From the NCBI GenBank assembly GCA_021847485.1, contig JAJZRA010000004.1, positions 463 to 64,462 on the forward strand: a DNA stretch of 64,000 bases. Reading direction: 5' to 3'. This stretch comes from a bacterium (GTDB taxonomy: Bacteria > Elusimicrobiota > Elusimicrobia > Elusimicrobiales > UBA9959). Shown here piece after piece: positions 56,574 through 59,877 of the stretch. Positions within the stretch are counted from its first letter, which is position 1; the number at the start of each line of letters is the position of its first letter. A program made the position numbers and the translations under genes. The notes under the pieces are model-generated. The model saw only the letters and a program-made list of their open reading frames with translations. It was not told the origin of the DNA and did no database searches.

Positions 56574-57680
56574 ATGAAGATCGGCATACTTACCGGCGGC
56601 GGCGACTGCCCCGGCCTCAACGCCGTCGTGCGCGGCGTCACCAAGTCCGCGCTGCGGCGGGGCTGGGAGGTGATCGGCTTCCGCGACGGCTACCGCGGCC
56701 TCGTCGAACAGGACTTCACCCAGCTGCACGACCACGACGTATCCGGCATCATCATCCGCGGCGGCACGATACTCGGCACTTCCAACACCGCCAACCCTTT
56801 CGCCTACACCCTGCCCCCGCTCGGCTCGGCGGCGAAACCCAAAGACCTTTCCTCCCTGGCCTTCCGCAATTTCAAGGCCCTGGGGCTCGACGCGCTCGTG
56901 GCGATCGGCGGCGACGGCACGCTTACGATGGCCGAGCAGCTCCACAAGCGCGGCATGCCGGTGGTCGGCGTGCCGAAAACGATAGACAACGACCTTTCCG
57001 CCACGGACGTGACCTTCGGCTTCGACTCGGCGCTGCGCGTCGCCACCGAGGCGGTGGACCGCGTGCACACCACGGCGGAGTCGCATAACCGGGTGATGAT
57101 AGTGGAGACGATGGGCCGCTACGCCGGCTGGATAGCGCTGCGCGCCGGCATAGCCGGCGGCGGGGACGTGATCCTGCTGCCCGAGATCCCCTATAAGCCC
57201 GAGGATATCGTGGCGGCGGTGATGGACCGCAAGCGCCGCGGCAAGAAGTTCTCCATCATCGTGGTAGCCGAGGGCGCGCGCCCGGCGAAGGGCAGGATGA
57301 CAGTGGCCAGCGTGGTGAAGGGCTCGCCCGACCCGCTGCGCCTGGGCGGCGTCTCCTACAAGATCGCCGCCCTGCTCGATAAGAGCCGCGTGGGCCTCGA
57401 GAGCCGCGTGGTGGTGCTGGGGCACGTGCAGCGCGGCGGCGAGCCTACCGCTTTCGACAGGTGGCTCGCGACCGGTTTCGGCGTGAAGGCGGCGGAACTG
57501 CTCGCGAAGCGCCGGTTCGGCCGGATGGTCTCTTTCCGTAAATACTCCTTCGCCGACGTGAAGATCGCCGAGGCGGTGGGCCGGCTGCGCCGCGTGACGC
57601 CCTCCTCCCCGGAGGTGCGCGGCGCTCTCGCCGTAGGGGTCGGCTTCGGCAACAGGAAGGTGACAGGCGATGGCCGCTGA
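56574..57680 (+). CDS. pfkA: 6-phosphofructokinase (ATP-type, group III subfamily)
   Basis: TGGGDCPGLN, GGTILGTS, GGDGT, PKTIDND, ETMGR, LGHVQRGG. Confidence 0.92.
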   Translation: MKIGILTGGGDCPGLNAVVRGVTKSALRRGWEVIGFRDGYRGLVEQDFTQLHDHDVSGIIIRGGTILGTSNTANPFAYTLPPLGSAAKPKDLSSLAFRNFKALGLDALVAIGGDGTLTMAEQLHKRGMPVVGVPKTIDNDLSATDVTFGFDSALRVATEAVDRVHTTAESHNRVMIVETMGRYAGWIALRAGIAGGGDVILLPEIPYKPEDIVAAVMDRKRRGKKFSIIVVAEGARPAKGRMTVASVVKGSPDPLRLGGVSYKIAALLDKSRVGLESRVVVLGHVQRGGEPTAFDRWLATGFGVKAAELLAKRRFGRMVSFRKYSFADVKIAEAVGRLRRVTPSSPEVRGALAVGVGFGNRKVTGDGR

Positions 57681-58398
57681 ACTGCTTTACGGCATAAACA
57701 CCGCCGAGGAGGTGCTGAAGGCGGGCCGCCGCCGCGTGCTGCGGCTGCTGGTCTCCCGCGACGAGAAGAGCCGCAGGGTCAACGAACTGGCCGCGCTGGC
57801 CCGGAAGGCCGGGGTCCGCGTGGAGTTCTGCGACCCGCGCGCGCTGGAACGCCTGGCGGCCGGCGGCAACCACCAGGGAGTGGTGCTGGAGGCGGAGCCT
57901 CCCCGCAAGCTGTCGCTCGAGGAGGCCCTGGCCTCCGAGAAGGACCTCAAGCGCACCGTCTGGGCCGCGCTGGACGGCATCACCGATCCCATGAACCTCG
58001 GCGCCATCGTCCGCTCGGCCGCGTGCCTGGGCGTGTCCACCGTGGTCCTGCCCGAGCGCCGCTCGGCCTCGCTGACGGGAGCGGCGCAGAAGACCGCTTC
58101 CGGCGCGGCGGAGCGCGTGAACGTGGTGGAGGTGGTGAACCTCAACCAGACCGTCATTAAACTTAAGGAAAAGGGCTTCTGGGTCTACGGCATGGACATG
58201 GGCGGCAAGCCGCTGCCGCAGGTGGATTTCACGCTGCCGGCGCTGGTCATCATCGGCTCCGAGGGCGAGGGGCTGCACCAGAAGACCCGCGAACACTGCG
58301 ACGAGATAGTCTCTATCCCGCAGAAAGGCGGCGTGGAAAGCCTGAACGCCTCCAACGCCGCCGCCGTGGTCTTCTACGAACTCTCCAAGAGGATCTGA
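57670..58398 (+). CDS. rlmB: 23S rRNA 2'-O-methyltransferase (RlmB/TrmH family)
   Basis: NHQGVV, LDGITDPMNLGAIVRSA, IGSEGEG, ESLNAS. Confidence 0.88.
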   Translation: MAAELLYGINTAEEVLKAGRRRVLRLLVSRDEKSRRVNELAALARKAGVRVEFCDPRALERLAAGGNHQGVVLEAEPPRKLSLEEALASEKDLKRTVWAALDGITDPMNLGAIVRSAACLGVSTVVLPERRSASLTGAAQKTASGAAERVNVVEVVNLNQTVIKLKEKGFWVYGMDMGGKPLPQVDFTLPALVIIGSEGEGLHQKTREHCDEIVSIPQKGGVESLNASNAAAVVFYELSKRI

Positions 58399-58418: not shown

Positions 58419-58502
58419 AAAAAGACAACGCGGGCACTCGCCCGCGCTGTCTCCCTCAAAGCTAAGGAGCGGAAAGCGACCGTCGATAAGGTGTTCCGCT
58501 CC
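58419..58502 (-). ncRNA. Candidate stand-alone small RNA (~84 nt, two hairpins)
   Basis: Begins just after -10 box; 5' stem GGAGCGGAA/UUCCGCUCC; 3' terminator AGACAGCGCGGGC/GCCCGCGUUGUCU+UUUU; no ORF. Confidence 0.6.
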
Positions 58503-58508
58503 AAAAAT

Positions 58509-58536
58509 AGTATAGCAGATTTTTTTTATTTGTCAA
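58509..58536 (-). promoter_or_regulatory. Near-consensus sigma70 promoter for the candidate sRNA
   Basis: TTGACA (58536-58531), 16 nt, TATACT (58514-58509) with extended TGn. Confidence 0.75.
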
Positions 58537-58565
58537 GGGGTGCGCCCTTGACATGTCAATAGCGG

Positions 58566-59834
58566 TCACTTCAGGACCAGCAGGTAGAGTTCGCCGGAGG
58601 CCTTCATCGAGGAGGCCTCGGTCTCGGCCGTGTCTCCGGTGCCCCAGAACAGGTCCACGCGGCCGGGGCCGCGGATGGCCGAGCCGGTGTCGTGCGTGGA
58701 GATGAAGCGGCTGAAATCCCTGAAGGCCAGGCCGTCGCCCTGCAGGACGGGCCGCCTGGACTTGAGCAGGCCGAACAGGCCGTAGGGGATGTACTTGGGA
58801 TCGATGGCTATGGAGCGGCCGGGGACCAGGGCCTGGCCGATGGCGCCGTAGGCCGCGCTGTCCTTCGGGCGTTCCTTGAAGAAGACGTAGCGCGGGTTCA
58901 GGTCGATCAGGCGCTCCTCGCGGGGCCCCTGTGCCGACAGGTACTTTATGAAGTCCTTGAACGACATGGACGGCGTCTCGCCGCAGTCTATCAGGAGCTT
59001 CTGCACGCTGCGGTACGGGTGGCCGTTGGCGCCGTCGAAGCCTGCGCGGATATGGTCCCCGTCGGGAAAGCGCAGCACGCCCGACCCCTGGATCTGCAGC
59101 AGCATGATCTGCGCCGGGTGGGCGGACCAGACCAGCTCCAGGCCTTTCCCGTCCAGCGCGCCCGCGTGGACCTCGGCGGTGGAATAGTGGCGGACCAGCC
59201 TGCCGTCCGCGTCGTAGCGGCCGTAGTCGAAATCGACTCCCATGTCGGCCGTGGTCTTGACCAGGTCGGCGGGCCGGAGCAGGACGGGATAGCGGTGCTC
59301 GGCGTCGGGCGAGCGGGTGACCGGTATCTCGGCCTCGTAGTAGCCGGTTATCACGGTCTTGCCTGAACCGTCGTCGGCGGAGGCGCGGTAGATCCTGAAG
59401 CGGGCCTGCAGCTCCCTGCGCAGGTCGGCGGGGAGGAGGTCCGAGGCGAAGAGCGCCTGCAGGGCCTTTATCGTGCGGCGCATGGCGGGCGCGTCGTAAG
59501 TTGCGCCGCCCAGCTGTATACGGGCCGTGTCCGGCCTGCCCTCCCAGTAGACGAGGTCCTCTTCCAGTATCTTCAGCAGGCCGGCCTTGTCCAGGTCGTC
59601 GGCGGGCAGCGGTAGCGCGTCGGCTCCGACCTCGGCCACTTCCCTGACGGCGGGCGCGTCGGCGTAGCCGTCGGCCCCCCGTAAAGAGTTCAACTTGGGA
59701 CAGGAGTCCAGGGTGTCGGCGGGGGCGCCGGGCTCGGGCGCTTCTACAGCTTCGCGCGCGGGCGCGTACCAGGGGGCCTGGCAGAAAGCCGCGGAGGGCA
59801 GGGAGACCAGCAGGGAGAGCACGGCCGCTTTCAT
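58566..59834 (-). CDS. mltA: MltA-family lytic murein transglycosylase
   Basis: TGYYE, LQIQGSG, NGHPYRS, NPRYVFF, SIAID, DTGSAIRGPGRVDLFWGTG. Confidence 0.92.
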   Translation of the reverse strand: MKAAVLSLLVSLPSAAFCQAPWYAPAREAVEAPEPGAPADTLDSCPKLNSLRGADGYADAPAVREVAEVGADALPLPADDLDKAGLLKILEEDLVYWEGRPDTARIQLGGATYDAPAMRRTIKALQALFASDLLPADLRRELQARFRIYRASADDGSGKTVITGYYEAEIPVTRSPDAEHRYPVLLRPADLVKTTADMGVDFDYGRYDADGRLVRHYSTAEVHAGALDGKGLELVWSAHPAQIMLLQIQGSGVLRFPDGDHIRAGFDGANGHPYRSVQKLLIDCGETPSMSFKDFIKYLSAQGPREERLIDLNPRYVFFKERPKDSAAYGAIGQALVPGRSIAIDPKYIPYGLFGLLKSRRPVLQGDGLAFRDFSRFISTHDTGSAIRGPGRVDLFWGTGDTAETEASSMKASGELYLLVLK

Positions 59835-59877
59835 ACCCAGAATGCTACATAAAAGGTTGAGGGAAATCAACCAAACG

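Follow-up and report, generated by a model that had tools for sequence, protein, structure and literature searches.

The window, the whole 64,000-nt stretch of DNA that was analysed, carries a short unit on its minus strand between the convergent genes rlmB and mltA (Table 1). The preliminary description had drawn a TTGACA-16-(TGc)TATACT promoter on this strand, two hairpins, a palindrome TTGACATGTCAA and an inverted repeat (58531-58553), and all of these are present in the sequence as described; the Pfam domains of the neighbours bear out the setting. The promoter is of the sigma-70 type and matches the consensus at 11 of 12 positions, with the -10 TATACT at 58514-58509 and a TG in the 16-nt spacer that follows the -35. 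A promoter scan returned two overlapping sites at this one place against 0.1 +/- 0.4 in shuffled sequences. The RNA originally proposed, 58502-58419, begins six nucleotides past the -10, and its 84-nt strand folds into two hairpins at -46.6 kcal/mol (z = -6.4), with none of 200 shuffles folding equally well. The first of these, the core hairpin, has a lower stem of 9-10 bp, a 3' bulge, an ACC/GGU upper stem (58492-58479) and the loop UUAUCGAC (58489-58482). The 3' hairpin is not among the calls of a terminator scan but does fold with five U at its end, and the terminator it forms is probably common to the 84-nt RNA and rlmB. That there is no open reading frame was borne out: ATG is absent from the RNA, and the TTG and GTG codons that it contains have no SD upstream. 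ARAGORN found no tRNA or tmRNA within the window.

Table 1. Features of the RNA locus and its flanking genes (positions in the window)
Feature	Position	Strand	Evidence
rlmB-like SpoU rRNA methylase, convergent neighbour	57670..58398	+	Pfam PF00588, PF08032
Second hairpin and 5 U, predicted intrinsic terminator of the 84-nt form	58419..58451	-	Fold; 2/7 core pairs with compensatory changes, loop variable
GAGGGAGACAG, 3' motif specific to the genus, partly within the second stem	58447..58457	-	36/36 genus orthologues
U-rich linker, degenerate here; corresponds to the U-tract ending the unit in other copies	58458..58465	-	Comparison with other copies
Core hairpin of the RNA family, 37 nt, from predicted +1 G58502	58466..58502	-	Fold; compensatory changes; purine seventh after the -10 in 122/125 copies
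Extended -10 (TGc TATACT), 16-nt spacer	58509..58517	-	Promoter scan, alignment, sequence
-35 hexamer TTGACA	58531..58536	-	Promoter scan; TTGAC invariant in 52/52 alignment rows, which were selected by the promoter pattern
Palindrome TTGAC-N2-GTCAA, candidate operator centred at -51.5 of the predicted start	58548..58559		Exact in 34/36 genus orthologues
mltA lytic transglycosylase, neighbour upstream on the same strand	58566..59870	-	Pfam PF03562, PF06725

The unit is conserved and syntenic with mltA and rlmB in 39 of the 42 other genomes of the genus (model R1, E <= 1e-20), and the three that R1 missed are 66, 84 and 92% complete. By BLASTN the region was recovered from 34 of the 36 genomes sampled in the genus. 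Among 30 aligned genus copies, double changes occur in 5 of 23 pairs, a number reached by none of 500 shuffles; six of the eight core-loop bases are invariant, while all four bases of the terminator loop vary. In other genera the promoter, first hairpin and U-tract persist in the orthologues, but the 3' motif is gone and the second hairpin is often absent. The motif GAGGGAGACAG and the second hairpin are thus a genus-specific extension: the motif is kept in all 36 genus orthologues, and none of the orthologues examined from other genera showed it. We rejected a pseudoknot, CCUUA/UGAGG, as a family feature. Its bases are invariant, with no covariation, in the genus only, and other genera lack its 3' partner.

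Two elements of the preliminary description did not survive comparison across the genus. The anti-SD-like CUCCUU is not supported as a seed: it has four of its six bases within the P1 stem, is kept as a hexamer in only 19 of 36 genus orthologues and gave no target above shuffles. The 9-bp inverted repeat around the -35 is conserved only in its TGTCAA/TTGACA part, the next three nucleotides showing 16 different combinations among 36 loci.

The unit has further copies elsewhere, and together these form a family of stand-alone units, each made of a promoter, a hairpin and a U-tract. The family pattern is TTGACA-N13-TGN-TAYAMT, then a hairpin of about 38 nt from the predicted +1, then the U-tract. 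The source genome has three copies, one at mltA/rlmB and two paralogues on contig C87. When 110 promoter sites in this genome were scanned, five hairpin-plus-U units emerged: the locus itself, the two C87 paralogues, one tRNA and one other. Two more promoters, at G000:C28:9856 and C118:35300 (-), lead straight into a hairpin and U-tract; the models do not place them in the family and they have no Rfam match.

We built a model of promoter and hairpin, R3, from 52 rows of 7 genera. It matches 78 of 80 genomes of the bacterial family at E <= 1e-3, with one to seven matches per genome, some of them weak, and its best match is at E <= 3.3e-9 in 74 of the 80, including three genera outside the model. 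Four genomes gave weak R3 matches; the match in g12 is a true copy, and we did not count those in g16, which have longer hairpins, or that in g14, which is promoter only. Outside the bacterial family R3 gave weak matches (E >= 1e-5) in 9 of 143 class genomes, and the four viewed were promoter-hairpin-U units of another shape, again not counted. A second model, R2, run over 151 phylum genomes, likewise gave only weak matches outside the family (E >= 9e-6, 10 of 143), the single one viewed being an ordinary terminator. A wider pattern search of a contig collection that may lack near genomes gave one match, a Bacteroidales record with neither a promoter nor an intact stem, which we took as chance, and viral contigs gave 0 matches for two patterns. 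The 23 metagenome matches were all rlmB/mltA-type loci. Two of four sequencing runs gave, on comparison, only short pieces less than 90% alike, including one 237-nt contig of a relative (from a run flagged as probably DNA), a result that speaks neither for nor against expression. The promoter-hairpin-U units of a different shape lie at L168, L169 and L170 (family f8) and L171 (family f2); that at L168 lies about 240 nt upstream of a six-tRNA array that includes a tRNA with a UAU anticodon.

From 146 fetched loci, weak candidates among them, a script extracted 125 units, which lay in 117 of the loci, and their anatomy was compared. Across the family the hairpin begins 6-8 nt after the -10, and the seventh base after the -10 is almost always a purine (Table 1). 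At least six T fall within 10 nt after the hairpin in 93 of the 125 units. The copies share a 10-bp lower stem, a 3' bulge of 2-4 nt, a CC/GG upper stem and an AU-rich loop of 5-9 nt. All 52 rows have CC/GG, and the bulge is retained while its letters vary. Long single-stranded stretches are absent from the family core outside the loop and the U tail. The loops differ between paralogues (UUAUCGAC, UUAUAAAC, CUCUUAGU).

Compensatory changes support this fold. Double changes occur in 9 of 10 lower-stem pairs across the 52 rows and covariation is 0.57 against 0.04-0.27 in slid registers, counts that lean favourable because the rows were picked for folding and are mutually related. Within types, there are double changes in 6 of 14 pairs (type A, 24 rows) and 5 of 14 pairs (types B and C, 28 rows). 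Cells with G-U outnumber those with A-C by 64 to 4, which favours an RNA made from the promoter strand.

Four loci recur. Locus A is rlmB/mltA, locus B lies at the MetH activation domain/WG-repeat protein, locus C follows an ABC-F ATPase, and locus D belongs to genera with small genomes, two of the five copies viewed there facing the WG-repeat gene. At locus A the unit comes after mltA in 39 and after rlmB in 21 of 60 scored loci (61 are given). As it follows mltA or rlmB according to genus, the unit has been inverted without loss and is not a leader or terminator of its neighbours. This flipping counts against the hairpins being solely rlmB/mltA terminators, the outcome that the preliminary description had set against its own proposal. 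Its observation that no gene lies downstream on the same strand holds in all 36 genus loci, rlmB being convergent. In the family at large the next gene is convergent in 91 of 125 units, on the same strand in 30 and absent in four, as judged by a crude gene caller that mislabels some known convergent loci. The convergent gene is often within 50 nt of the unit. Same-strand genes downstream of other copies differ between genomes, and separate terminator hairpins follow several copies. In six loci a pair of units lies 124-183 bp apart, and each unit has a promoter to itself.

At locus B two type-B copies bracket a variable cargo of about 0.1 to 34 kb. The GC content of this cargo is ordinary, and no integrase or transposase families were found among the 47 of 57 crudely called cargo ORFs that were scanned. 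On contig C87 of G000 (L121:3258-4457) a 399-aa S1-domain gene lies between two type-B copies, and a second, distant S1 gene lies on C60; an S1-domain gene adjoins only 5 of the 125 copies. In one genome (L126:1468-1550) the rlmB locus, usually the place of type A, has a type-B hairpin, which suggests replacement between paralogues.

The unit does not have the full defining features of any named RNA family. The comparison with Rfam 15 that had been proposed gave no match to any known family: the best score at the locus was 20.2 bits, far below the cut-offs, with no match over the whole window or in six homologous loci, and none at E <= 0.5 in L160 and L174. Bacterial small SRP RNA was rejected, with no RF00169 match at the locus or in six genomes. 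The Ffh M-domain (PF02978) was found in 0 of 151 class genomes and 14 of 14 controls, and few Elusimicrobia are reported to have SRP (PMC7987157). The predicted RNA, at 45-84 nt, does not fit 6S RNA, a hairpin of about 180 nt with a central bubble; RF00013 scored above cut-off in 0 of 151 class genomes, in a search whose control was weak (4 of 14). Nor is it a piece of tmRNA. Intact tmRNA was found in four of four relatives, and the unit has no T arm, has A3-U in its stem and is not called by ARAGORN. Csr/Rsm titrating RNA was set aside since the loops have no GGA and CsrA (PF02599) is in 0 of 5 genomes, Y RNA since TROVE/Ro60 (PF05731) is in 0 of 5, and Hfq-dependent sRNA since Hfq (PF17209) is in 0 of 5. 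A riboswitch or cis leader was rejected because there is no consistent same-strand gene downstream. RRM proteins were rejected as a partner: 83 of 151 class genomes have them, but most of these belong to families that yielded no copy of the RNA, so that co-occurrence is not specific. A descriptor search for promoter-less copies in mRNA leaders, run without a control, gave at least 144 matches, mostly coding. The literature, outside most subscription journals and supplementary motif tables, yielded no description of RNAs of this lineage or architecture. The RNA gene family is real and conserved, and apparently undescribed. The preliminary description's proposal of an undescribed stand-alone structured RNA gene is therefore supported, by conservation, covariation, inversion between genera and the lack of an Rfam match.

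The palindrome upstream of the -35 was also noted at the outset, and the genus supports reading it as an operator-like site: it is exact in 34 of 36 orthologues at 22-24 bp before the -35, with a variable middle dinucleotide. It is not, however, a private site of the RNA promoter, for it marks many other promoters. TTGAC-N2-GTCAA is present 12 times in the genome, against an expectation of 0.9 and against 0-2 for the 12 other spacings. A -10 accompanies 11 of these sites; in eight the palindrome is the -35 itself and in three it lies 23 bp upstream of the -35. In a slightly relaxed form it is found at or before 51 of 125 family promoters. The other marked promoters lead to a trypsin-like peptidase, two clostripain peptidases and a giant Ig-domain protein, as well as to a formiminotransferase leader and two c-di-GMP-I-GGC-like aptamers below the gathering score. 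From its distribution the palindrome looks like the operator of a wider regulon, although it may instead be a plain promoter element.

Several of these sites deserve mention in their own right. At L217:802-925 (G000:C89:8601 onward, +) a promoter with the palindrome as its -35 is followed by a conserved three-hairpin leader and a terminator, upstream of glutamate formiminotransferase. BLASTN matches this leader in 60 of 80 family genomes (in some the promoter only), its stems covary by eye and it has no Rfam match, making it a candidate orphan riboswitch or attenuator. The two aptamers (L220:352-430 and L221:442-520, G000:C102) score 50.4 and 48.9 bits against a cut-off of 59. Both lie behind promoters with the palindrome upstream, and the genes that follow them are an 11,735-aa ORF with Ig-like domains and one for a TPR/outer-membrane protein. 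At G000:C118:31968 and C102:37795 (-) palindrome-marked promoters are followed by low-complexity leaders of GCGGT/GCAGT repeats.

What might such an RNA do? An RNA predicted to be almost wholly paired from its first base, with conserved geometry and a few conserved bases, variable copy number, no pairing target above shuffles in one genome and Hfq in 0 of 5 genomes, favours a protein-binding, dose-dependent role. Our preferred reading, held tentatively and with appreciable doubt, is that the unit makes a short stable RNA that binds and titrates a protein through its bulged hairpin, as a dosage-type decoy. Transcription would start at G58502. Most copies would give RNAs of about 45 nt, their hairpin doubling as the terminator, and the source genus would also make the form of about 84 nt. 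A dimeric DNA-binding regulator acting at TTGAC-N2-GTCAA may control the RNA promoter, and sites of the same regulator would also mark the promoters of secreted peptidases and of the giant Ig-like surface protein. The protein bound by the RNA would recognise the kinked stem, the CC/GG pairs and the AU-rich loop, with copy number setting the dose. Several observations sit awkwardly with a decoy. No partner emerged among the proteins considered (CsrA and Ro60 in 0 of 5 genomes, Ffh in 0 of 151, RRM proteins not tracking the RNA), the differing loops of the paralogues would also fit different RNA targets, the mostly convergent next genes would fit a role in transcription collision, and a decoy does not explain the invariant 3' motif of the genus.

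Multicopy RNAs that titrate a protein are known in CsrB, RsmY and RsmZ. The proposed role is similar, but here there is one hairpin per RNA, and neither the GGA loops nor CsrA were found. Bacterial Y RNAs have paired 5' and 3' ends, a bulged stem and a U tail, all of which the unit shares; unlike them it has no tRNA-like domain and no Rfam match, in genomes where TROVE/Ro60 was not found. It also resembles an intrinsic terminator, a GC-rich hairpin followed by a U-tract, except that the hairpin starts directly at its promoter's predicted +1 and retains a bulge, CC/GG and loop bases.

By analogy, the family may work most like sibling sRNAs such as FopS and NsiR1: the copies are several and related, and each has a promoter and a terminator-like end of its own. 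FopS, a Bacteroides thetaiotaomicron RNA (PMC11697453), has a single-stranded 5' seed and a terminator and represses mRNAs by pairing. The likeness lies in the paralogous short intergenic RNA genes, the canonical promoters and a lineage with RRM proteins in which Hfq was not found. The units described here differ in that the predicted +1 is the first paired base, so that the core has no single-stranded seed, and in having no Rfam match. NsiR1 of heterocystous cyanobacteria (PMC4030482) is an RNA of about 60 nt with tandem copies, each with its own promoter and a regulator-linked motif near the -35. Our copies also carry their own promoters with a motif near the -35, but they are mostly dispersed over two to four loci, have one bulged hairpin each, show no similarity in Rfam and have no evident linked target gene.

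These precedents bear on the first alternative to a protein decoy, that the copies are Hfq-independent sibling sRNAs whose loop, or whose 3' GAGGGAGACAG in the genus, pairs with mRNAs or other RNAs. We think this unlikely, but it has an identifiable basis in the conservation of the loop bases and the 11-nt motif within the genus, and in FopS and NsiR1 as multicopy sRNAs. However, neither the 11-nt motif nor the 15-nt loop region has an exact complement in the genome other than at the locus. The best duplex between the 3' single-stranded region and 2519 start regions was -26.4, no better than the -21.6 to -28.7 of 20 shuffles, in a test on one 83%-complete genome with crude gene calls and accessibility ignored. 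Moreover, the anti-SD is buried and variable, and the 11-nt motif is confined to the genus among the genera examined.

The act of transcription, rather than the RNA, might matter instead, the mini-unit sending RNA polymerase head-on into the convergent gene and stopping read-through, with the hairpin a mere terminator. A convergent gene does lie next to most copies, often very closely, and in E. coli head-on collisions at stem-loops are described as terminating convergent genes (bioRxiv 2022.10.23.513370). Such a role seems improbable to us, as the bulge, CC/GG and loop are conserved beyond the needs of a terminator, several copies already have separate terminator hairpins after them, the first copy of each tandem pair faces another copy and not a gene, and some copies precede same-strand genes.

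The pairs of type-B copies bracketing variable cargo could point to a repeated cassette acting at the DNA level, a mobile mini-element or recombination site. This is very unlikely given the lack of integrase or transposase families in the scanned ORFs, the ordinary GC of the cargo, loci that are stably syntenic across genera, the bias of G-U over A-C and the 0 matches in viral contigs for two patterns. We give just as little weight, or slightly less, to an antitoxin RNA neutralising an unlinked toxin or nuclease. A strong promoter and several copies, typical of RNA antitoxins, are both found here, but no conserved toxin-like gene is adjacent, the neighbours being RlmB, MltA, the MetH activation domain, the WG-repeat protein, the S1-domain protein and the ABC-F ATPase. 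A cis-acting leader, riboswitch or plain terminator of rlmB/mltA is barely credible, and largely refuted already by the orientation flipping: the second hairpin can terminate between the convergent genes, but same-strand genes downstream are absent from all 36 genus loci and vary by genome after other copies.

Returning to a protein-titrating RNA, a more far-reaching version of it can be put forward as a speculation that we consider improbable. The units would form a minimal class of RNA gene, whose product of about 45 nt is its own terminator hairpin, and would act as the RNA arm of a global switch. The RNA would titrate an unrecognised regulator, possibly the factor binding TTGAC-N2-GTCAA or a part of the transcription machinery, and so couple protease secretion with surface adhesins in bacteria whose searched genomes yielded no SRP, 6S, Hfq or CsrA.

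The family is a new, well-covarying group of RNAs, with a range of one family of uncultured bacteria, in an almost unstudied lineage where Hfq, CsrA, Ro60 and Ffh were not found. Its predicted product, a single hairpin from the +1, is so short and so heavily paired that most sRNA screens would miss it, and it is likely to be mistaken for a terminator. The palindrome that marks many of its promoters gives a first candidate regulon for these bacteria.
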